Shown: positions 1 through 10,683, counted from the first letter of the stretch. The stretch is 64,000 nt of DNA from Pseudomonadota bacterium (GCA_021325355.1 JAJPHI010000009.1:387144-451143), one strand, 5' to 3'. Translations and numbers: made by a program. Notes: generated by a model from the sequence alone, not told the origin.

Positions 1-572
1 ATAGCCTGCTTCGCGCCCGCGACTTGCCGCCGCCGGCACCGGTTATGCGCCGGCTTCGCCGCACCTCCGGGTGACTCGCGACTGCCGCCGGCGCCGTTCC
101 GCGTCATTTTTGCGCTCTCATCGACGAGACCGGCGGAACGTCACCGCCCGCAGCCGCGCCGCAAATCTCGTCCGCCGCTTTCGGCTGAAAGCGCTCAGCT
201 CTCGCCCGCAAGATTCGCGGGAATTCGGCCAATCCGCCGCTCGCGGTCATAGACCGTGCGCCAACTGAACGGCGACTTGCCGTTGCATCGCTCACACAGC
301 CCGACGCTCGACGCCATCATATTGGCGACTGCATAGAGCATCCCGCAGCCGACGCATCGCTGCTGCACCCGCGCGTTGGGTTTCGGGCGTCTCACCGGGA
401 GCGATCCTTCCGGCCTTCGCATGGTTGGCTGACGGTAATTGCGCTCGATTACCCGCCTATCACGCGACTGTGATGCTGGCGTTAAGGCCTTCTTGGCCGA
501 TGCTGCTTCAGTTTTGCTTACTGAAATATTTCACCCTTATGCCTTCGGCGAATTTCTGAAAAATCGTCGGGC

Positions 573-1010
573 ATGTTGAACCATGCCCAATTTGCGTGGA
601 GTGCTCGCAGAAAACTCCTCTTCACTCTTGCTGTAGCAGTCTTCGCTCCGCCAGCGGTTTATGCCGGCAATGCGATTAATCAGGCAACCACCGGCCAACC
701 CGGCACGGCCGTGGTGATTTCGAACACCGCGCCGACGGAGCTGCTGGCGGCAAACCGCGCGCGCTACGGCTGGACGATTTACTGTGCCGGCACCGCCGGT
801 GGTATCGCGGCGATGGTGATGCCGGGCGATTCGGCCGGCGACCCGGCAAGCCCCGCCCCATCCCAGACCGTCGGTTTTCCGGTTCCCGCCAATGTCCTGA
901 TGACCGACCAGGATTTTCCGCTGCGCGGCCTTGACGCGATCCATCAACGTCTCGATGCGGAAGCGCAGGGGAGCGCACCGGTCAGTTGCTACACCTGGGA
1001 GGAGCAATAA
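573..1010 (+). CDS. Small secreted hypothetical protein (N-terminal hydrophobic signal-like segment), first gene of a tightly packed plus-strand operon
   Basis: ORF begins just after a local AT-rich stretch (about 480-570). The N-terminus 'RKLLFTLAVAVFAPPAVYAG' resembles a signal peptide. It ends 3 nt before the next gene. No recognisable family. Confidence 0.4.
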   Translation: MLNHAQFAWSARRKLLFTLAVAVFAPPAVYAGNAINQATTGQPGTAVVISNTAPTELLAANRARYGWTIYCAGTAGGIAAMVMPGDSAGDPASPAPSQTVGFPVPANVLMTDQDFPLRGLDAIHQRLDAEAQGSAPVSCYTWEEQ

Positions 1011-1013
1011 GCG

Positions 1014-2702
1014 ATGCTGGTCCGACGAAATCCACTGCTCCGCCGCGCCAGCGCTTGCCCCGCCCCGCCCTATCGCCCGCTGGCGAGCTTTCTTCTGCCC
1101 GCGCTCCTCGTCGCGATTTTCGGCGTTCCGTCGGCAATGGCGGCCCCGTGGGGCAACGGCGCCGGCGGCGGTGGCGGCGGCGCCTCCGGCAAGGTCAACT
1201 CGGGAGCTTCGGGCCAGCTCGGCTACTACTCGGGCAGCGGCACGACGATTTCCGGAACGACGATCGGCGGCGACTGTACTTTCGCGGCACCCAGCACCTT
1301 CACCTGCACCAAAACCAACGGCGTAAGCTTCGCCCCGTCGGCCACGATCAATACGACCAACGCGTCGAATATCAGTGCCGGCACGCTCAGCGCCGCACGC
1401 CTTCCGGCACTTGGCGGCGATACCACATCCGTAGCCGGCTCCGCGGTCACCACCACCCAGCAGGTGCATCTTCATACCCGCGCGATTACCGGAACAGGCA
1501 CCGCGGATACGGCTTCGTGCAGCACCGATCAGGTAATCACGATCAATTCGACCGGCGGCAACTTTATCGAGAATCTGCCCGCCACCACCGGGCTGCCGCC
1601 GAACTGTTCCTTCCTGATTATCAACCTGATGACTTCCGCCAACGTCACGATCACGCCGAATGCCGCAAACGGCGACAAACTTAACGGCGCTTCAAGCTAT
1701 GTTTTGGCGCCGCCCAATCGCGCCACCTGGATACAGTTCGTCGCTCCCAACAGTTGGTCAATCATCGCCGATACTCCGGCCGGCGGCGGCGATGTTGCCG
1801 GTTCGAATCAGAGCTGGCTCGTCACCGGTCTGAACGGCGTGCCGATGCAGGGGGCGCTGGCCAAAGCCAACGCGGTCTGGTGCTACGACGGCTCGGCCCA
1901 CATGGTCGAGTGCGATCTCGCCCAGTATCCCCAAGTCGTCCTCAACAACGATCCGACTACCGGCACCACCCTGAACACGCTGACCAAGATTCAGTCCGGT
2001 AATGCAATTATCGCGGCGACCACGGATTCAGCCGGGATGGTCGGGATTACCGTCGCGGGCGCCGGCAAGAGCGGCGCCGCCACTATCCAACTGACTGGTC
2101 TGGCGACCTGCGTCTTCGATAATTCCACCACGGCGGGCGATTTTGTCGGGATCAGCGCCAGCGTCCCGGGGGATTGTCACGACGCGGGCGCCAACGCCGG
2201 CGCGCTGCTCCAGTCGCAGAAAATCGGCAAGGTTCTCGCCACCAATTCTGGACCGGGCGCGTATCAAATCATGCTCTATCCGGTCGGCGAAAACGTTCGG
2301 ACTCAGGTCGATTATGGGTCTCAGGGCGCGAGCGCGGCGCCGACCACCAGCGGCGGCTCGGCTTACTTCAATCTCCAGGGCCCGCTCTCCAGCGCCACCG
2401 AGGCCAACGTCAACAACGGTCCGGTGCCGGCCAATCACGTCTTCAGCAATCTGTGTTGCGTCTCGACGGTCGCTTCCGGCAGCGCCGTCAATTGGTCCGT
2501 CGTTCTGCGGGCGAACGGCACCGTTCCGTCGGGCGAGCCCAACGTCACCCTGAGCAACACCACGGCGCCGGTGTGCGACACCATCGATACCTACACCAGC
2601 TCGGCCGCCGGCACTGATCTGCTCGACCTGAAGATCACCTGTAACGGCGGTACCTGCGCCTCCGGCAGTCTGGTCCGCTGCTCCACGCTCGAAACCTACT
2701 GA
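1014..2702 (+). CDS. Large secreted Gly/Ser/Thr/Asn-rich protein, possible beta-structured adhesin or tail-fibre-like protein
   Basis: Sec-type signal (basic N-terminus, hydrophobic core, 'AMA|AP'). Poly-Gly tract 'GNGAGGGGGGASG'. Highly T/S/G/N-rich with many Cys. Motif 'NISAGTLSAARLP' is reminiscent of phage tail-fibre proteins. No enzymatic motifs. Confidence 0.6.
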   Translation: MLVRRNPLLRRASACPAPPYRPLASFLLPALLVAIFGVPSAMAAPWGNGAGGGGGGASGKVNSGASGQLGYYSGSGTTISGTTIGGDCTFAAPSTFTCTKTNGVSFAPSATINTTNASNISAGTLSAARLPALGGDTTSVAGSAVTTTQQVHLHTRAITGTGTADTASCSTDQVITINSTGGNFIENLPATTGLPPNCSFLIINLMTSANVTITPNAANGDKLNGASSYVLAPPNRATWIQFVAPNSWSIIADTPAGGGDVAGSNQSWLVTGLNGVPMQGALAKANAVWCYDGSAHMVECDLAQYPQVVLNNDPTTGTTLNTLTKIQSGNAIIAATTDSAGMVGITVAGAGKSGAATIQLTGLATCVFDNSTTAGDFVGISASVPGDCHDAGANAGALLQSQKIGKVLATNSGPGAYQIMLYPVGENVRTQVDYGSQGASAAPTTSGGSAYFNLQGPLSSATEANVNNGPVPANHVFSNLCCVSTVASGSAVNWSVVLRANGTVPSGEPNVTLSNTTAPVCDTIDTYTSSAAGTDLLDLKITCNGGTCASGSLVRCSTLETY

Positions 2703-2742
2703 GCAGTTCGCGGCCGCGACTGCGTCCAAGGATACCCGACCA

Positions 2743-4092
2743 ATGGAACTCTCCGGATTCCGCTGCGCCGACCCGCGACTCAGCTCCGCGCACCGCGCGC
2801 GGCCACGTCATTCGAAGTTCGCCCTGCGATGGCTCCGACGCGGACTGCTGACCGCGCTGCTCGTCGTCGCCGTGGTTCTGCCGCTTCGCGCCGCCTCAGG
2901 ACCGCTCACCTCGGCCCAGGGATGGGTGGCGGCGCTGATCGATTCGCCTGCCGCCTTTTACACCCCAAATCCCGCCTTCACTCCCGGCTTCGAGATGGGG
3001 CTGTACCAGGGCACGAATGTGCTGGCCACCGCTTCCGCGCCGCACGACGCCAAACTTAAAAGCGCCGCTGCGGCGGTCGTCCCCTTATGTCAGAACGGCA
3101 ACCCGCCGAGCGGCTCCTGCGCCGAGGGCGGAGCCGGCAAAATCGGCGTCGCCCATATCGGCTTCTCGGTTTCGATCCAACAGACCTGCACCGGACCGAA
3201 CCATGCCAACGGTCTGGTCGCGCCGACTCCCTCAGCCTGCGCGACCGGCACCGCCGACTATACGCTCTACCAGGATCAGCAGGGCGCGACGCCCACCATC
3301 GCGCCGACGGTCTACTTTGCCGATTGTGCGCAGCCCTCGGCCACGATGGATAAATGGGCGGCGCAGATAGGTATCAACTCTCAAACCACCGCTCCCTATT
3401 GGTACAACTGCGTAAATACCGTTCTGCCCAACGAGGGGCTGGTCGCCAACCAGATTGAGGCGGTCACGATCGAAGCTGCCGCCGGTTCACCGTCCGCGGG
3501 CTTTTCCTCGATGTCCTCGTTGTCCCATACGCCGTGCCAGGCCGGTGACGAGGCCACCGTCGCTGCCTGCTATGGGGAACAACAGACCGGCATCGTCCTG
3601 CGCGAGCTTTTTCAGCAGTGGCCGCATCTGAAGATCGCCTACCTGTATTCGCGCGCCTACGGCGGATGCGCGGCGGCGGGCACGCTCAATCCCGAACCCT
3701 ATGCCTACGAAGACGGCTTTACCGTCCAGTTCCTGATTCAGGCGCAGATTCGCCAGGCCGACAACAACGGTCCGCAAGACAGCGAGGCCGGCAATCTTGC
3801 CTACAGCGTCGTTCCGGCACTCTCGTGGGGCGGCTATCAATGGGCCAACGGCACGACGCCCAACAGTGAAGGCCTGTCGTGGCCCTGCACTGACTTCACC
3901 ACGACTGACCAGACGCATTTCGTCAACGGCGGTTACCAGAACTCGGCAAATACCATGATCAATTTCTTTCTCGGCACGAGCGTCACCGGCGCCAACCATC
4001 AGGCGTACACCGGATGGATCCGCCCGAATGGCGCGACGCCCGCTCCCACCGCCTCCTCCACTCCCACCATGCTCTTCTCGTTTCACCGCTAA
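2743..4092 (+). CDS. Secreted Cys-rich hypothetical protein
   Basis: Hydrophobic signal-like segment 'LLTALLVVAVVLPLRAASGP'. 449 aa with many Cys, Trp and Tyr, and no recognisable catalytic motif. Start codon uncertain. Confidence 0.5.
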   Translation: MELSGFRCADPRLSSAHRARPRHSKFALRWLRRGLLTALLVVAVVLPLRAASGPLTSAQGWVAALIDSPAAFYTPNPAFTPGFEMGLYQGTNVLATASAPHDAKLKSAAAAVVPLCQNGNPPSGSCAEGGAGKIGVAHIGFSVSIQQTCTGPNHANGLVAPTPSACATGTADYTLYQDQQGATPTIAPTVYFADCAQPSATMDKWAAQIGINSQTTAPYWYNCVNTVLPNEGLVANQIEAVTIEAAAGSPSAGFSSMSSLSHTPCQAGDEATVAACYGEQQTGIVLRELFQQWPHLKIAYLYSRAYGGCAAAGTLNPEPYAYEDGFTVQFLIQAQIRQADNNGPQDSEAGNLAYSVVPALSWGGYQWANGTTPNSEGLSWPCTDFTTTDQTHFVNGGYQNSANTMINFFLGTSVTGANHQAYTGWIRPNGATPAPTASSTPTMLFSFHR

Positions 4093-4096
4093 GCCG

Positions 4097-4900
4097 ATGA
4101 AAATCAGCGCTGTCATAGTCTCAGTCGATTACGGCGATATCCTCGTCTGGACCCTGCGGGAAAATCGTCACGTCTTCGACCGGCTCGTCGTCGTCACCAG
4201 CCCGCGCGATTTCCGTACCCGTCGCGTCTGCGAGCACTTCCATATCCGGTGCGAAGTCACCAGTGCCTTTTATGCGGGCGCATCGGGGGTGGATCTGCTC
4301 GCCTTCAACAAGGCGGCCGGCATCAACCACGGCCTGCGTCAGTTGATGCAGGAGCGCCCCCCGGACCGCGACGATTGGTACGTCCATCTCGACGCCGATA
4401 TCGTCCTGCCGCCGCGCACTCGCGAACTGCTGCACAAGGTCGATCCCGACCCCGCGTGTATCTACGGCATCGACCGCATGATGTGCACGTCGTTCGATGA
4501 CTATCTGCGTTATGCGGCGCTGCCGGCGCCGCAGCATCAGAACCAGATCTTCGTCCGCGCCGACGCCTTTCCGCTCGGCGTGCGCGTGGCGCGGCTTGAT
4601 CCCGACGGCAGCGGCTATGTCCCGATCGGTTTCTTCCAGATGTGGAACCCGGTCGGCTCGGGCGTGACTGACTATCCGCAATATCACCAGTCAGCCGCCC
4701 GCTCGGACATGCTGTTTGCACTCCGATGGCCCCGGCGCCGCCGACACCTCATCCCCGAGATTGTCGCGACCCATCTCGAGTCCGAAGTCTCGCCGATGGG
4801 CCAGAACTGGAACGGCCGCCGCAGTTGTTCTTTCGGTCCGCCGCCCGCGTCCTCGATTCTCGAACCAAATCCGCAACCTTATGAATGTGAGAGGCAATAA
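4097..4900 (+). CDS. GT-A fold glycosyltransferase-like protein (family-2-like)
   Basis: Internal ATG giving N-terminus 'MKISAVIVSVDYGD', typical of the GT2 N-terminal strand. DXD-like 'HLDADIV' motif. The ORF track 5' extension (from 4028) is Pro-rich and probably untranslated. Confidence 0.5.
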   Translation: MKISAVIVSVDYGDILVWTLRENRHVFDRLVVVTSPRDFRTRRVCEHFHIRCEVTSAFYAGASGVDLLAFNKAAGINHGLRQLMQERPPDRDDWYVHLDADIVLPPRTRELLHKVDPDPACIYGIDRMMCTSFDDYLRYAALPAPQHQNQIFVRADAFPLGVRVARLDPDGSGYVPIGFFQMWNPVGSGVTDYPQYHQSAARSDMLFALRWPRRRRHLIPEIVATHLESEVSPMGQNWNGRRSCSFGPPPASSILEPNPQPYECERQ

Positions 4901-4903
4901 AGC

Positions 4904-5680
4904 ATGATTGCAGGAAAACTCGGCAAACGTCCCGCCCGTCGCGACTTCCGCACGCTGCGTATCAGCAACTATCTGCGCCGTCTGCCCCCGCCGCGTCCCG
5001 ATGGCGTCGACTGGGGTGCGGCCGTGCGCAAGGATCACCTCGCGCTCGGGATGCTCGGCAACGACCAGTACGGCGATTGCTTCTGGGCGATGGCCGCGCA
5101 TGCCTTCATCACCTGGAACGCCAACGCCGGTCGCAAGGTTGAATTCACCACCGATGCGGTACTCAATGCGTACTGCGCCTACCTCGGTATCCCGCGCAGC
5201 CAGCTCAATGATCAGACCGACAACGGCACCGTGATGCTCGACGGGCTCAAGTTCCTGCGCACCACCGGACTCGTTGACGCCTCCGGCAAGGTGCACAAAA
5301 TCGGCGCCTTCGCCGCCGTCGATGCCAAAAACGAGACGGAGGTCAGGGTCGCGCTCGATCTCTTCGGCGAGCTGCTCATCGGCGTCGAATTCCCCGGAGC
5401 GTGGATGAACACCAACGTCTGGGACGTCACCTCGGACGCTGTCGCAGGCGGGCATGCGATCAACGGCATTGCCCGCGACCTCAAGGGTGCGCCGGCGGTC
5501 GGTATCAATATCGATACCTGGGGCGCGGACAACTATTGGCTCACCTGGCCGGCCCTCGCGCAGTTCTGTGACGAGCTTTACGTCACCGTGCCGACGGACT
5601 GGATCGAGGACAACGGTCGCGCGCCGAGCGGACTCGATCTGAAGGCGCTGCTCGCGGACCTTGCCGCGGTCACCGCCTGA
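4904..5680 (+). CDS. Papain-like (C1-like) cysteine peptidase, cytoplasmic (no signal peptide)
   Basis: 'QYGDCFWAMAAHA' resembles the Q...C-x-W-A catalytic Cys region of papain. 'GGHAINGIA' is a candidate catalytic His. 'NIDTWGADNYW' resembles the papain N-S-W-G oxyanion/Asn region. Starts 4 nt after the previous stop. Confidence 0.55.
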   Translation: MIAGKLGKRPARRDFRTLRISNYLRRLPPPRPDGVDWGAAVRKDHLALGMLGNDQYGDCFWAMAAHAFITWNANAGRKVEFTTDAVLNAYCAYLGIPRSQLNDQTDNGTVMLDGLKFLRTTGLVDASGKVHKIGAFAAVDAKNETEVRVALDLFGELLIGVEFPGAWMNTNVWDVTSDAVAGGHAINGIARDLKGAPAVGINIDTWGADNYWLTWPALAQFCDELYVTVPTDWIEDNGRAPSGLDLKALLADLAAVTA

Positions 5681-5688
5681 CTCGGCAT

Positions 5689-5892
5689 ATGAAAGCACTT
5701 GCTTCGCTGTTGAGTGACCTCAAGACCAGTTGCGCCGGTATCGCCCTCATCGCGATCACCGTGCTCTTTCTCACCGGCCGTCTCGGGGTCAATCAGTATC
5801 TCGCCGCGGTGGGCGCGCTCGCCGGCGGCGGCCTCGTGATGGCGAAAGATGCTTCGCCGGTAACGCCGGAGCAGAAGAAGGAACTGAAATGA
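5689..5892 (+). CDS. Small single-pass membrane protein (holin-like or i-spanin-like topology)
   Basis: 67 aa with one strongly hydrophobic segment 'GIALIAITVLFLTG' and a charged C-terminus 'PEQKKELK'. Its stop overlaps the next start (ATGA at 5889-5892). Confidence 0.5.
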   Translation: MKALASLLSDLKTSCAGIALIAITVLFLTGRLGVNQYLAAVGALAGGGLVMAKDASPVTPEQKKELK

Positions 5893-6281
5893 ATACAGCT
5901 CTTGCCAAATTGACTATCGCGTCGCTGCTCTGCCTGACGCTGCTGTCGCTCGGATGCGCCACCCAAAACGCCGGCATCACCTGGCCCATCAGCATCGGTG
6001 GTCAGCAAATCCTGGTTAACTCCGCGCCGGTCCTGACCATGCAGGCCGAGCAATCCTGCAACGCCCAGGCGCAGGTCGAGTACAATCTGAACGTCGCCGC
6101 CTGCGAGGGCAAGCTCGCCCCGCTCTTCCCGGTGCAGTTCGCCGGCGTCAACGCGCAGGCGCAGGTTCTCTGCCAGGCCTTCGGCTACACCAACTCGAGC
6201 GGCCAGCTTGCCGTGCCCGAGACCATCCAGTTGGGCGGATGCGCCACCGCGGCCAGCACGGTCAAACGCCGCACGTCCTAA
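5889..6281 (+). CDS. Lipoprotein (signal peptide with lipobox 'LSLGC')
   Basis: Internal ATG at 5889 gives 'MNTALAKLTIASLLCLTLLSLGCATQNAG', a classic lipoprotein signal plus Cys. Gln/Ala-rich mature part with paired Cys. Translationally coupled to the upstream small TM gene. Confidence 0.55.
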   Translation: MNTALAKLTIASLLCLTLLSLGCATQNAGITWPISIGGQQILVNSAPVLTMQAEQSCNAQAQVEYNLNVAACEGKLAPLFPVQFAGVNAQAQVLCQAFGYTNSSGQLAVPETIQLGGCATAASTVKRRTS

Positions 6282-6320: not shown

Positions 6321-8195
6321 TCACGCCGGAGCAGCCGCGAACTGATCGTTGCCTTCACCGCGCAGGATCGCATCGAAACGCAGCCCGCCGAGATACTGGC
6401 GGCGCGCCTCTTCGTCGGTGATCACGCTCCGGCGCACGTCGCGGCGGCGGATCTGCCACACTCCCCCGACCATCGGATGGCGCCCCTGGCGATAGCTGAA
6501 GAAGTAATACGACCATTGCCGCCACAGCGCGCGGCGCGCTTCGGCCGAAAGGCCCCGACCGCTCGCGACCGACAGGATCATGCTCAGCAGCCGGCCCAGT
6601 GAATAGAAGCCGGTGAAAGCGTCGCGGTACGCCTGATACCAGGTGTAGGTATCCATCTTCTCGTGCCGCAGCGTCACATGCTGCGAGTCCAGATTATTGA
6701 AGTCCCAGTCGATTATCTGGCCCTCTTTCGCGTATCGCACCTGATCTTCGGTGCCGGGCAGCGGCGTCATGATAAAAAACGACACCATGTCGAAGCCGAT
6801 CTTGCGCAGCATCTGCGCCGCGACCCGCCCGCAGTCCGGACCGTCAAACGGGAATCCCAGCATATAGCCGGCATGCACTGACACGCCCACCCGATGCCAG
6901 TTTTCGACGACTCGGCGGTACTTGTGCAGCACCCGCCGCTTGGCATCTTCGAGGCTCATCCGATGCTGCCGGTCTTCGGTGTTCTGATATTTCGTGGCGT
7001 GATTCAGATTGTCCGGATTGAGCGACTCGATACCGACGAACGCCTGGTAACAGCCCGCCCGCGCCGCGAGCTCCGTAAAGCGCCGGCTTCGGCGATGCTT
7101 GGCCGTCTCGGTTTCGCCCGGTTCCAGGTTCGCGAAGCACGACGCATCGACGTCCACCTGCATCATGAACGAGAAGCGCGGAAACTCCTTGCGTACTTCA
7201 ATCAGTCCCGTGAGAATTTCTTCCCATCGCGGACTGCGGAAAAAATCGTCGTCCACCAAAAACAGCGACTCGATCCCATGATGGCGCGCGGCGTCGCGCA
7301 CCCAGTTGACCACCGCCCCCGGTTCGCGCGATCGCATCGTGCGCCCCATCACATTCTTCACGCTGCAGTAAGAGCAGGTGAACGGACAGCCGCGCGACGT
7401 ATCCAGCGTGGTCATCGTCGTCGTGAAGAACCGCGACAGATAGCGATCATCGATCGTCGGTAACTGCGCGTCGGTTATCACCGGCACGATGATGTCGTCC
7501 TGGCCGGTCTTGGCGCGAATCCCATCGACCACCGCGTAGTTCAGTTTGAGTTCACCGCGCAGAAAATCCTCGATCAGCTCGGCCCAGATCGTTTCGGCCT
7601 CACCGACGATGGTCGTGATACCGCAACTGTTCAGGAATTCGCGCGACTGCGGATAACCGCTGACGTGAAATCCGCCCATCATGGTCGGGATCTGCTTCGC
7701 CACGAACTGCAGCGCCAAATCACGACCGCGCGCATATTGGTTCGACTGCACTCCCGCCAGTCCCACCAATAATTCCACCCCGTCCTCGATCGCTTTTTCT
7801 TTGATCGCGACGATCGTCTCCGGCGTCACCACGCCGTCGCACAACTCGTCCCAGATGACCGTCTCGAGCACCACGTTGCGCTCGGCGCCGCGTTGCTGAT
7901 TGAGCGTATCGTTAAGCGCCTTCAGCACCGTCAGCGTGTTATTCGGCTGCACGCCGTAGCGAAAGAATTGAACATAGCCCTCTTCGTCGTAACGCGAGGG
8001 CTTGATGAAATACACGCGGACCGTCCGGCACGGTTCGGCCCGCAGCGCATCGCTGCCCGCCGCCGATGCCGGCCCCGTCAATTGCAACGGTCGCTTGCTG
8101 TCGCGATGGGTATAACGTTCGTGACCGATCATGAACCAGAGCAGAGTTCCGCAACCGATCAGAACCAGGCTCAGGATAGTAAACGCCAGAATCAT
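6321..8195 (-). CDS. B12-binding domain radical SAM protein (class B) with N-terminal transmembrane anchor
   Basis: CxxxCxxC 'RGCPFTCSYCS' radical-SAM motif preceded by a cobalamin-binding-like N-domain. The first about 22 aa, 'MILAFTILSLVLIGCGTLLWFMI', are hydrophobic. Confidence 0.8.
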   Translation of the reverse strand: MILAFTILSLVLIGCGTLLWFMIGHERYTHRDSKRPLQLTGPASAAGSDALRAEPCRTVRVYFIKPSRYDEEGYVQFFRYGVQPNNTLTVLKALNDTLNQQRGAERNVVLETVIWDELCDGVVTPETIVAIKEKAIEDGVELLVGLAGVQSNQYARGRDLALQFVAKQIPTMMGGFHVSGYPQSREFLNSCGITTIVGEAETIWAELIEDFLRGELKLNYAVVDGIRAKTGQDDIIVPVITDAQLPTIDDRYLSRFFTTTMTTLDTSRGCPFTCSYCSVKNVMGRTMRSREPGAVVNWVRDAARHHGIESLFLVDDDFFRSPRWEEILTGLIEVRKEFPRFSFMMQVDVDASCFANLEPGETETAKHRRSRRFTELAARAGCYQAFVGIESLNPDNLNHATKYQNTEDRQHRMSLEDAKRRVLHKYRRVVENWHRVGVSVHAGYMLGFPFDGPDCGRVAAQMLRKIGFDMVSFFIMTPLPGTEDQVRYAKEGQIIDWDFNNLDSQHVTLRHEKMDTYTWYQAYRDAFTGFYSLGRLLSMILSVASGRGLSAEARRALWRQWSYYFFSYRQGRHPMVGGVWQIRRRDVRRSVITDEEARRQYLGGLRFDAILRGEGNDQFAAAPA

Positions 8196-8307: not shown

Positions 8308-10683
8308 TTAACGATACATCTCGATAAGCGAAATCAGGCCCAGGTCGCGATATCGCTCTATGAGATATCCTTTGATGTCCTTTACGCTTGAGAGTTGCGA
8401 TACATCGTGCGCGATATGCCGCGCCGTCTGATAGCTCGACTCCTGAACCAATTTTCGGACCACCGGAATGAACAGCGGACTCAAGCTCAGTTGATCGAGT
8501 CCCATCCCCACCAGCAGCAGCGTCGCCAGCGGATCGCTGGCCATCTCCCCGCACAGACAGACTTCCTTGCCGGCGCCCCGCGCCACGTTGACCACTTCCG
8601 CAATCGCCGACAACACCGCCGGATGGAGCGGCTCGTAAAGATGCGCCACCTTGGGATTATTGCGATCGGCCGCGAGCAGATACTGCACCAGGTCGTTGGT
8701 GCCGATCGAAAAGAAATCCACCTCGCGGATAAGCCGCGGCGCCAGCCAGACCGCCGACGGCACCTCGACCATGATTCCCACCTCGATCGCCGGATTGTGC
8801 TCGAGCCCCTCCTTGAACAACTCGGCCTGGGCTTCGAGCAGAAGTTCGCGCGCGCGATGCAGTTCCTCGAGACTCGAAATCATCGGAAACAACACGCGCA
8901 CCTTGCGATGGGCCGCGGCGCGCAGGATGGCGCGCAACTGCACCTTGAAGATCCCCGCCAATTCCAGTGAGATCCGAATCGATCGCCAGCCGAGAAACGG
9001 ATTCTCCTCACGCGGCACGCGCAGATATGGCGGATACTTGTCCGCCCCGATATCCAGCGTGCGAATCGTCACCGTTCGCTCCCCTACCGCCTCGAGCATC
9101 CGCGTGTACAGCTCGATCTGCTGGTTTTCGTCGGGGAAATCCTCGTACGTCAGAAAGGAAAATTCCGAGCGCAGGAGCCCGATACCTTCCGCTCCGTAGC
9201 GCAGGGCCAGCCGCACGTCCGGCAGCAGCGCGATATTGGCCAGCATCTGTACCCGATGGCCGTCGCGGGTCTCCGCCGGCGCCTGCAACCCCGCCATCAG
9301 TTCGCGGCGGAAGGCCTCGTAGCGCTTGTGCTGCAACTGATACTCGCGCTCGACCTCCGCTGACGGATTGATGTAGAGCACCCCGGAGTTGCCGTCGAGC
9401 TCGAGCGCATCGCCTTCCGAAACCGCCTCCATCAGCCGCTCGACACCCACGATCGTCGGCAGTTCGAAGGCGCGCGCCAGAATCGCCGCGTGCGAGGTCA
9501 CGCCGCCCGACTGCAGCGCAATCCCCGCCAGATTCTCATGCGACACCAGCGCCATCTGCGACAGCGTCAGCTCCTCCGCCACCAGGATGGTCTTGCGGCT
9601 GAACGATCCGATACCCTCTTCCTGGCGCAGATGGCGCAAAACGCGATGGCCGACGTCGCGGAAATCCGTGGCGCGTTCGCGCAAATAGGCGTCGGCCACG
9701 GCCAGCATCTGGGCGCTCAGTTCGTCGATTACCCGGAACAGCGAACTCTCCGCCGCATATCCCTCCGCGATCGTATCGCGCACCCGCGAGATAAACTCCT
9801 CGTCCTCGAGGATCAGCCGATGCGCGTCGAAGATCTGCAGGTCGTTCTCGGCCATCAACGGCGCCATCCGCGCTTTCAACGCCGCCAGTTCACCGCGCGA
9901 GCGCACCAGCGCCTCTTCGAACCGTTTAAGCTCGACCTTCGGATCCCGCGCCCGCAGATTGCGATCAATCGTGCTCAGGAACGTGCCGACAACGTGCGCG
10001 ACCCCGTGAGCGAAGCCCGGCGCCGCCGGCAACCCGACCAGCCGCGGATGGCGCATCTTGATTGGCGGCGCGACCCGCGTCGCCCCCGCCACCCGCTCGT
10101 AACCCTTGAGCTGACGGTTCGCCTCGATCATCCGCCGCCGATACTCGTCGCGCTCCTTCTCCTTGGTGGCCAGCGTCTCGCGCAGTTGAAACTGCGACAT
10201 GATCGCCGCCAACTGCGCCGCCGCCGTCCGCAACAGGCGGATCGCCACCGTGCCGAACTTGCGTCGCCGCAGCGTCTGCACCGTCAGCACGCCAAGCGGT
10301 TTCTGCCGCGTCTCGGCGATCGGCACCGCGAGCAGCGTGTGATAGCGCTCCTCGCCGGTTTCCGGGAAATACTTGTACCGCGGATGGCTCATCGCGTCTT
10401 CGACGACCACCGGCTCGCCCCGCTCGATCACCAGACCCACCAGACCTTCGTTGACGCGGATCGACACGCGGCCGACCGATTCGCGATTGAGGCCCACCGT
10501 CGCGCGCAGCACCAGCCGTTCGCGCTGCGGATCGAACAGGTAGATCGAACAAACCTCGACCTCCATGCGGGCAGCGATCGTGGTGACGACGCGGTCGAGA
10601 GTCTGACGCAGGTCGGCCGAAGGATCGCCGCTAATCGCCGAAATGTCCTCGATCAGCGCGAGGCGGTCTCGATTGGCGGCCAT
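8308..10683 (-). CDS. ptsP: Phosphoenolpyruvate-protein phosphotransferase with N-terminal GAF domain (EI-Ntr type)
   Basis: N-terminal GAF-like region and PEP-utilising-enzyme motifs, including active-site His region 'GGVTSHAAILARAFELPTIVGV'. Length 791 aa fits PtsP. Confidence 0.85.
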   Translation of the reverse strand: MAANRDRLALIEDISAISGDPSADLRQTLDRVVTTIAARMEVEVCSIYLFDPQRERLVLRATVGLNRESVGRVSIRVNEGLVGLVIERGEPVVVEDAMSHPRYKYFPETGEERYHTLLAVPIAETRQKPLGVLTVQTLRRRKFGTVAIRLLRTAAAQLAAIMSQFQLRETLATKEKERDEYRRRMIEANRQLKGYERVAGATRVAPPIKMRHPRLVGLPAAPGFAHGVAHVVGTFLSTIDRNLRARDPKVELKRFEEALVRSRGELAALKARMAPLMAENDLQIFDAHRLILEDEEFISRVRDTIAEGYAAESSLFRVIDELSAQMLAVADAYLRERATDFRDVGHRVLRHLRQEEGIGSFSRKTILVAEELTLSQMALVSHENLAGIALQSGGVTSHAAILARAFELPTIVGVERLMEAVSEGDALELDGNSGVLYINPSAEVEREYQLQHKRYEAFRRELMAGLQAPAETRDGHRVQMLANIALLPDVRLALRYGAEGIGLLRSEFSFLTYEDFPDENQQIELYTRMLEAVGERTVTIRTLDIGADKYPPYLRVPREENPFLGWRSIRISLELAGIFKVQLRAILRAAAHRKVRVLFPMISSLEELHRARELLLEAQAELFKEGLEHNPAIEVGIMVEVPSAVWLAPRLIREVDFFSIGTNDLVQYLLAADRNNPKVAHLYEPLHPAVLSAIAEVVNVARGAGKEVCLCGEMASDPLATLLLVGMGLDQLSLSPLFIPVVRKLVQESSYQTARHIAHDVSQLSSVKDIKGYLIERYRDLGLISLIEMYR

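Follow-up and report, generated by a model that had tools for sequence, protein, structure and literature searches.

The locus described here raises the question of whether two small adjacent genes in a bacterial chromosome, one for a membrane protein of 67 residues (p67) and one for a lipoprotein of 130 residues (p130), derive from the machinery with which bacteriophages lyse their hosts, or form part of the envelope of the bacterium itself. The genes lie at positions 5689–6281 of a stretch of 64,000 nucleotides (the window: GCA_021325355.1, JAJPHI010000009.1:387144-451143), listed as a Pseudomonadota bacterium; the host is a Candidatus Binataceae bacterium, from the uncultured phylum Binatota. 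An earlier note, written from the sequence alone, had suggested a holin or spanin-like pair directly after a peptidase, with a membrane anchor and lipoprotein serving the upstream exported proteins as the alternative.

The explanation that we favour, with moderate confidence, is that the pair closes a lysis-type module of phage origin that has been domesticated in the Candidatus Binataceae chromosome. The module would comprise a glycosyltransferase-like protein (p267), a papain-like cysteine peptidase (p258), the small membrane protein and the lipoprotein. The case is built on gene structure, homology, genomic context, selection and predicted fold, and the biochemical roles proposed below are all read from these. 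The genes of the module are as follows.

4097–4900, + strand: p267, cytoplasmic, with a motif (HLDADIV) resembling that of GT-A glycosyltransferases; it travels with p258 in a Mu-like prophage.
4904–5680, + strand: p258, a papain-family (C1-like) cysteine peptidase of 258 residues without a signal peptide; candidate endolysin.
5689–5892, + strand: p67, an open reading frame (ORF) of 67 residues from the ATG at 5689 to the TGA stop at 5890–5892.
5889–5892, + strand: the ATGA stop/start overlap of p67 and p130, read from the sequence and present in the window's lineage only.
5889–6281, + strand: p130, an ORF of 130 residues from the ATG at 5889 to the TAA at 6279–6281.

The order of peptidase, 67-residue membrane protein and overlapping lipoprotein, with its coordinates, had been noted previously and is confirmed in the sequence. 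The p67 gene starts 8 nt after the end of the p258 gene, and a Shine-Dalgarno-like AAGGAA lies 6–11 nt 5' of the p130 ATG. Promoter and terminator scans performed no better than on shuffled sequence. The locus is syntenic in two further lineages, L011 and L012, where the p67 and p130 genes are 35–80 nt apart with no ATGA overlap, and where p67 ends in ARDAK/N, about 11 residues earlier than the window's copy, which continues into a charged hydrophilic C-terminal tail (KDASPVTPEQKKELK). Because p67 ends earlier and the genes are separated in both of these lineages, the charged tail and the overlap are recent, and specific to the window's lineage. Between the lineages the synonymous sites are saturated (proportion of synonymous differences, pS, 0.6–0.8), while the corresponding nonsynonymous proportion (pN) is 0.29–0.30 for p67 and 0.19–0.22 for p130, giving a dN/dS (the ratio of nonsynonymous to synonymous rates) of roughly 0.1–0.3. 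The conservation of the pair in the syntenic loci, and the low pN at saturated synonymous divergence, mark the two as real, constrained genes rather than chance ORFs.

The membrane protein p67 had been described as spanning the membrane once. It has one strongly hydrophobic segment, at residues 13–29 (summed Hessa scale −0.7), as that description implies, and a second, weakly hydrophobic and Gly/Ala-rich segment at residues 36–52 (Hessa sum +4.2), which may be a second membrane span. The charge distribution is compatible with both termini being cytoplasmic (N-in/C-in). A word-index homology search with p67 returned p67 itself and nothing else. The family alignment has five members, namely the copies in the window, L011 and L012, a protein of 58 residues in prophage L018 (42 % identity, E 2e-13) and a p67-like protein of 55 residues in prophage L008; it is unrelated to the small transmembrane protein of viral contigs L013 and L015 (hhalign 2.9 %). 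In the window's lineage p67 is fast-evolving. The window's protein has at most 15 residues beyond its last hydrophobic segment, and the other four members have only 4–6 beyond the second segment. The lack of a periplasmic domain excludes p67 as an i-spanin, in agreement with the earlier judgement that it is too short; in the shortest known spanin pair the two periplasmic parts together come to 62 residues, and coiled-coil domains are a feature of i-spanins (PMC6139136). Holins are small integral inner-membrane proteins (around 60–150 residues) with at least one transmembrane domain, a description that p67 fits, and its homologues are found where a holin gene would be expected: between a candidate endolysin and a DUF2730 gene in L018, and within a lysozyme (GH108) cassette in L008. 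Late expression of these homologues would follow from a single feature, their place after a Mor-like activator. By size, topology and position p67 is thus a holin-like candidate.

The lipoprotein p130 begins with MNTALAKLTIASLLCLTLLSLG followed by C. The signal peptide ends in LSLG directly before the lipobox Cys23, with Ala at position +2, from which sorting to the outer membrane is predicted, and the lipobox is kept in all relatives aligned. The protein is moderately Ala/Gln-rich (Ala 15 %, Gln 10 %), as had been remarked. Its core of about 95 residues contains four conserved cysteines (57, 72, 95 and 118), and the motif C-N-x-x-A...Y...C...C-x-x-x-G-Y...C is common to all members of the family. 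A word-index search had recovered three homologues; an exhaustive profile search among 1.8 billion proteins found 33 representatives, and scans of genome and metagenome collections added one further locus each. The family is rare, patchy and unannotated. Nearly all of its full-length members have a lipobox, and many carry a Pro/Ala/Thr-rich C-terminal tail that the window's copy does not have. A first AlphaFold2 model, built from only four sequences, was unusable, with a mean predicted local distance difference test (pLDDT) of 38. With 23 sequences the pLDDT rose to 76 overall, and residues 40–120, at 82–95, are predicted to form three helices. Foldseek found no match to this model in PDB or BFVD, Pfam gave no match to p130, and a sequence search of PDB with the family profile was empty or random. 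By hhalign the family has nothing in common with the lipoprotein of locus L028 beyond the signal peptide, and p130 shows no resemblance to the Bor, Cor or Llp families. Since it ends without a hydrophobic segment and carries four periplasmic cysteines, it is not a u-spanin of the T1 gp11 type.

The full length of the peptidase p258 aligns with phrog_19005 (E 1.3e-24). The papain (C1) family is recognised by a catalytic Cys in Q/N-x-x-G-x-C-W/F, a His in GGH, and a following (N/D)xWG; in p258 these are GNDQYGDCFW, GGHAING and DTWG, and Cys59, His184 and Trp206 do not vary among 27 homologues. The family profile finds xylellain (3ois, E 7.7e-5) and, weakly, cathepsin K, while the Pfam Peptidase_C1 model does not match p258 and a single-sequence search of PDB was empty or random. 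This sequence evidence makes p258 a distant member of the papain (C1) family of cysteine peptidases. At least 82 genes belong to the p258 family, and the homologue in the deposited phage MW202816 comes after an N-acetylmuramoyl-L-alanine amidase. For p267, gene callers place the start at 4097, and the longest ORF begins at 4028. A PDB sequence search with p267 was empty or random, and the sole related Pfam signal is a sub-threshold match to Glyco_tranf_2_4 (E 0.035), on the copy in prophage L018 (9200–9988), with which p267 shares 75 % identity.

That the gene order recalls phage lysis cassettes, as the earlier note had it, is borne out by the relatives. One of these is L018, a Mu-like prophage in the same metagenome-assembled genome as the window (locus tags VFB15_07235 and VFB15_11685). 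Its genes run from a transposase through a MuB-like ATPase, Gam, GemA and a Mor-like activator to lipoproteins of 125 and 100 residues, then proteins of 262, 271 (a peptidase) and 58 residues, a DUF2730 protein of 108 residues, Mu gp27, TerL and the Mu portal. The proteins of 262, 271 and 58 residues are homologues of p267, p258 and p67 (75, 75 and 42 % identity), and the first gene of the lys operon encodes a distant member of the p130 family (hhalign 82 %). The 58-residue gene overlaps the DUF2730 gene by 8 nt. The releasin of Mu, gp25, belongs to DUF2730, which lies no more than five genes downstream of the endolysin in 34 of 34 phages analysed by Chamblee et al., and also accompanies cytoplasmic endolysins (PMC9239132). 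By this rule the signal-less peptidase of L018 occupies the endolysin position and is likely to be the endolysin. The cassette has just one other small membrane protein, the p67 homologue, which lies between the endolysin position and the releasin.

Two further features of L018 may be recorded. The lipoprotein of 100 residues (8889–9191) has a weakly hydrophobic C-terminal segment, AASAAASGITFGFAMCAAG, and is possibly u-spanin-like. Between L018 9200–10816 and window 4097–5680 pS is 0.48–0.57, below the 0.70–0.78 of the orthologous islands, despite an amino-acid identity of about 75 % in both comparisons; a codon usage common to both, or recombination of the prophage with the island, could account for this.

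In prophage L008 the order is GH108 lysozyme, a p130 homologue (67 %), a protein of 166 residues, the p67-like protein of 55 residues, and DUF2730, the last two genes sharing an ATGA overlap. The His...Cys order of the 166-residue protein, seen by eye only, suggests a permuted papain-like enzyme. Short palindromic repeats are found between many prophage genes, at about 12 sites in L008 (for example 3295–3370, 4433–4459 and 5787–5872) and also in L015 (for example 2211–2234 and 3836–3923). They read PFPxxGKG in both strands, and none is present in the window.

The Mu-like viral contigs L013–L015 have a late activator, a GH108 enzyme, a small transmembrane protein and lipoproteins including a p130 homologue (45 %), followed by a transmembrane-plus-coiled-coil protein and a terminase. 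A Pro-rich lipoprotein (...DPPPQLPDATQSPCPPGSG...) is encoded in L015 (1794–2183) and L014 (77–367) by a gene that overlaps the 3' end of the preceding small transmembrane gene. This protein is closer to a classical o-spanin than is the p130 family, and a second, unrelated lipoprotein comes next. In L021 and L022 a p130-family member (hhalign 99.4 %) follows a protein with two transmembrane segments, and its gene overlaps the downstream gene for a p258-family peptidase. L031 and L032 have a family member ahead of a Pfam Peptidase_C1 protein. The p258-family peptidase of L028 is found two genes after a Pfam holin (Phage_holin_10, 60.9 bits), its gene preceded and overlapped by a lipoprotein gene.

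With the exception of L024, all detectable relatives of p67, p130 and p258 beyond the chromosomal islands belong to the lysis regions of Mu-like prophages and of viral contigs. The p130 family occurs in the lysis cassettes of at least five phage or prophage lineages, as a rule next to a papain-fold peptidase or GH108 lysozyme, and is a recurrent component of such cassettes, accompanying two unrelated classes of hydrolase but mostly papain-fold peptidases. The phage homologues that the earlier note had proposed to look for thus exist, but p67-type and p130-type genes are never adjacent in them: in phages the p67-type gene couples to DUF2730 and the p130-type gene to a peptidoglycan hydrolase gene, and their adjacency is found only in the islands.

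In the window, the module is part of an island of eight genes, comprising seven closely packed genes on the + strand, for proteins of 145, 562, 449, 267, 258, 67 and 130 residues with gaps of 3–40 nt, and one divergent gene, zn75. Those upstream of the module are as follows.

195–422, − strand: zn75, 75 residues, uncalled, with CxxC...CxxC; divergent, the left edge of the island.
573–1010, + strand: p145, a small exported protein with a homologue in prophage L008.
1014–2702, + strand: p562, exported, Gly/Thr/Ser-rich and Cys-rich.
2743–4092, + strand: p449, exported and Cys-rich; the best conserved gene of the island (dN/dS 0.04–0.08).

The islands of L011 and L012 lie, like that of the window, beside the radical S-adenosylmethionine (radical-SAM) and ptsP genes. 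Host proteins are 88–91 % identical between the lineages, and island proteins 61–80 %. The ratio dN/dS is about 0.04–0.3 for every island gene, and all ORFs are intact in the window, L011 and L012, except that p258 is missing from L012. In L012 a gap of 130 nt separates the glycosyltransferase-like gene from the small membrane gene, and three-taxon arithmetic on dN shows no acceleration on the L012 branch. Exact copies of p130 are present on 23 contigs from several samples, and the exact island is held by samples of soil and peat. The sequence comparisons indicate that the island genes are real and under long-term purifying selection. The island has no virion genes, no DUF2730 and no i-spanin-type gene; because purifying selection has been maintained in three lineages despite the absence of virion genes, with the module sharing an operon with three exported proteins, the island is probably domesticated rather than a decaying prophage.

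The surroundings of the island are those of a host chromosome. On a contig of 126 kb the left flank carries Lnt, a SpoU methylase, LssY_C, DUF1285 and a CDP-alcohol phosphatidyltransferase, the presence of Lnt being consistent with a diderm that triacylates its lipoproteins. The right flank has a convergent B12/radical-SAM gene, ptsP, truB, rbfA, infB and nusA. The first of these encodes a B12-binding radical-SAM protein of 624 residues (6321–8195, − strand) with an N-terminal membrane segment, whose best NCBIfam matches are far below the cut-offs; it converges on the p130 gene, with the two stops 39 nt apart, and is beside the island in three of three lineages. A full prophage in the window was considered and rejected: matches to the phage loci fetched in this analysis are confined to 195–6281, with host genes on both sides. 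The window contains no tRNA gene (a common site of phage integration), and its GC content gives no clear island signal.

The protein p145 aligns with L008 14728–15210 (BLASTP, 31 % over 143 residues, E 5e-11 in a database of 13 proteins). The latter and L008 15576–16379, both exported, share the N-terminal motif FVGAVRERPS before the hydrophobic segment. The signal peptides of p145, p562 and p449 have Arg-Arg just before the hydrophobic core (SARRKLLF, LLRRASA and WLRRGLL), resembling those of the twin-arginine translocation pathway, and the three proteins contain 2, 15 and 11 cysteines. No relatives of p449 or p562 are detectable beyond the syntenic islands, and p449 has no match in Pfam, PHROG, PDB or viral contigs. 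The C-terminal motif of zn75 is SWRxVYDRxRxIGxIPxNL. It is kept in L011 (66 %), and homologues are found immediately upstream of the Mor-like late activator in L013 and L015; zn75 may be a phage-derived regulator of the island.

On the basis of these observations we propose that p67 would insert in the inner membrane and act as a holin-like permeabiliser, and that the permeabilised membrane would let p258 reach and cut the cell wall; because it is signal-less, p258 would need a holin. The lipoprotein would be exported, lipidated and sent to the outer membrane by virtue of its +2 Ala, and would take part there in the outer-envelope step, alongside the peptidoglycan hydrolase or on its behalf. 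The occurrence of two classes of hydrolase beside the p130 family argues for such a generic envelope role rather than for a specific inhibitor.

Several observations weigh against this proposal. The earlier note had called for comparison with curated holin and spanin families, and neither protein matches any: p67 and its family of five have no holin match in Pfam, NCBIfam or PHROGs, and p130 has no holin or spanin match in the same collections, PADLOC also being empty. The suggestion that p67 could be a holin is supported as regards size, topology and position, but not as regards family membership. The charged C-terminal tail typical of holins is absent from the other four members of the p67 family. 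The L012 island has no peptidase gene while its pair is intact (L012 1844–3395), so that the pair in the island cannot depend strictly on p258. The exported proteins p145, p562 and p449 have signal peptides of their own and would not need a holin. L014, L015 and L018 hold extra lipoproteins that are more spanin-like than p130, and in L024 the p130-family member lies between Mu gp37 and the tail genes, a position resembling that of a moron. Finally, tblastn of p67, p130 and p267 against 50,697 deposited phage genomes gave no match.

A bolder version of the proposal would make the p130 family a new phage lysis component, an outer-membrane lipoprotein partner of papain-fold peptidoglycan peptidases that takes over from spanins in the final lysis step, and the island its domesticated form, serving the host as a release system for the three exported proteins resembling type 10 secretion. 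In that case p130 might recruit or activate the peptidases at tethers between outer membrane and wall. We put this forward tentatively, and think it fairly unlikely.

The partnership could also be antagonistic. The lipoprotein would then inhibit or regulate papain-fold peptidoglycan peptidases in the periplasm, or serve as an immunity factor against them, with p67 as its membrane partner, and the chromosomal copy would be kept as a protective 'orphan immunity' gene. The same logic is seen in the Tae/Tai pairs of type VI secretion systems and in the Spackle protein of phage T4, which acts on the gp5 lysozyme. The lipoprotein gene is indeed coupled to, or beside, cysteine peptidase genes in independent lineages; p130 is modelled as a small helical periplasmic domain of disulfide type; and L012 has retained p130 after loss of the peptidase, as orphan immunity genes are retained. 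However, an inhibitor would be expected to track one class of enzyme, whereas the p130 family is also found beside GH108 muramidases with no C1-like peptidase (L013–L015). Moreover p130 has no structural similarity to Spackle or any solved inhibitor, and there is no obvious need for a phage to inhibit its own holin-gated endolysin. We regard an inhibitor as distinctly unlikely.

The alternative offered by the earlier note, a host envelope module in which a membrane anchor and a lipoprotein serve the three exported proteins and the phage relatives are secondary, fits the tight packing of the seven genes, and fits the finding that p449 and p267 accompany the pair in each of the three syntenic loci, L012 with its missing peptidase among them. 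The note had reasoned that consistent chromosomal, non-phage conservation of the pair with the upstream genes, together with a lack of similarity to holin and spanin families, would favour this role. The conservation is indeed found, in three lineages, but so are the phage homologues, and a purely envelope-anchoring origin is therefore not favoured. All relatives beyond the three islands come from phage lysis regions with neither p449 nor p562, the phage p67 homologues are coupled to DUF2730 and not to exported proteins, and the lack of a p449 homologue in viral contigs makes the association with exported proteins island-specific and derived. An envelope role of this kind thus seems improbable.

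We attach the same low probability to p130 being a phage moron, that is, an outer-membrane lipoprotein for superinfection exclusion or receptor masking that inserts near lysis genes. T5 Llp, phi80 Cor and lambda Bor are outer-membrane lipoproteins of this kind. The family is rare and patchy and its position in phages is variable, including that in L024, and retention in the chromosome would make sense if the exclusion of related Mu-like phages benefits the host. Against this, the genes are mostly inside the late lysis operon, co-oriented with the hydrolase genes and sometimes overlapping them, and are not behind a promoter or terminator of their own as typical morons are; nor is there sequence similarity to the Bor, Cor or Llp families.

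It is very unlikely that the island is an inert, decaying prophage fragment without current function. Its lack of DUF2730 and virion genes, the further loss of the peptidase in L012 and the fast evolution of p67 in the window's lineage would suit such a fragment, but ORFs intact in three lineages at saturated synonymous divergence, dN/dS values of about 0.04–0.3 throughout and identical copies on 23 contigs would not.

A classical two-component spanin, with p67 as i-spanin and p130 as o-spanin, can be set aside almost entirely: the ATGA overlap and the order of membrane protein then lipoprotein do resemble overlapped spanin architecture, and o-spanins can be helical with up to four periplasmic cysteines (PMC6139136), but the anatomy of p67 contradicts it, the overlap is not conserved, the two gene types are not neighbours in phages, and Pfam and PHROG give no spanin match, which is weak negative evidence given how diverse spanins are (PMC6139136). 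Nor is there an i-spanin-type gene elsewhere in the island or in cassettes L008, L013, L018, L021 and L031, where the transmembrane-plus-coiled-coil proteins are DUF2730-like, with a basic cytoplasmic C-terminal side, and are not i-spanins. For an o-spanin-like role, p130 therefore has compatible features but a missing partner.

To our knowledge, what is understood of how phages lyse diderm bacteria comes almost wholly from Proteobacteria. Around 40 % of spanin families have a single member, and in some phages no protein for disrupting the outer membrane can be recognised. The finding here is that two unannotated protein families of Binatota recur in lysis cassettes with a signal-less papain-like peptidase and a DUF2730 releasin. 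If p130 is indeed an outer-membrane component or a partner of the hydrolase, it would represent a new way of carrying out the final step of lysis, and the families would provide handles for annotating many 'hypothetical' genes. The island would be a candidate domesticated lysis cassette outside Enterobacterales, the order in which type 10 secretion was studied. If none of these proposals holds, the locus is no more than the remnant of a prophage.

Lysis modules derived from prophages are known as a class, while the C1-like endolysin candidate, the holin-like family and the four-Cys lipoprotein family are undescribed. There is a close likeness to the Mu-like lys operon (PMC9239132), in that the L018 homologues of p267, p258 and p67 lie between a Mor/C-type activator and the DUF2730-gp27-TerL-portal genes. 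It differs in that a papain-like peptidase with neither a signal-anchor-release (SAR) sequence nor a signal peptide, and not a muramidase, takes the endolysin position; in that the small membrane protein with two segments is coupled to DUF2730, with no recognisable spanins of Rz/Rz1 type; and in that the island in the window lacks DUF2730 and all other Mu genes. The protein p67 resembles class II holins and pinholins (two transmembrane domains, about 60–95 residues, for example S68 of phage 21) in its small size, its two segments, the SAR-like character of the weak Gly/Ala-rich segment, and the position of its gene beside that of a lysis enzyme. In p67, however, the weak segment is the second and not the first, there is no similarity to holins in Pfam or PHROG, and only the window's copy ends in a charged tail.

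The lipoprotein shares with o-spanins (lambda Rz1) and u-spanins (T1 gp11) its outer-membrane type, its place in lysis cassettes and its periplasmic cysteines, and the extended Pro/Ala/Thr-rich tail of many phage members, though not of the window's copy, is a further likeness. Unlike o-spanins it is predicted to have a folded helical core of about 95 residues with four cysteines rather than being a short Pro-rich peptide, and its gene is neither embedded in nor downstream of an i-spanin gene; unlike u-spanins it has no C-terminal transmembrane domain. Finally, type 10 secretion systems derive from phage lysis cassettes, and those of Serratia (ChiWXYZ), Yersinia entomophaga and Salmonella (PMC10847048, PMC13284979) resemble the island in being chromosomal lysis-type cassettes without virion genes, maintained by selection and clustered with genes for exported proteins. 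The components of the island are unrelated to theirs in sequence, the enzyme is a C1-like peptidase, and the putative cargo has signal peptides of its own. The architecture of the island is compatible with a type 10 secretion system, the identities of its components being assigned by analogy only.

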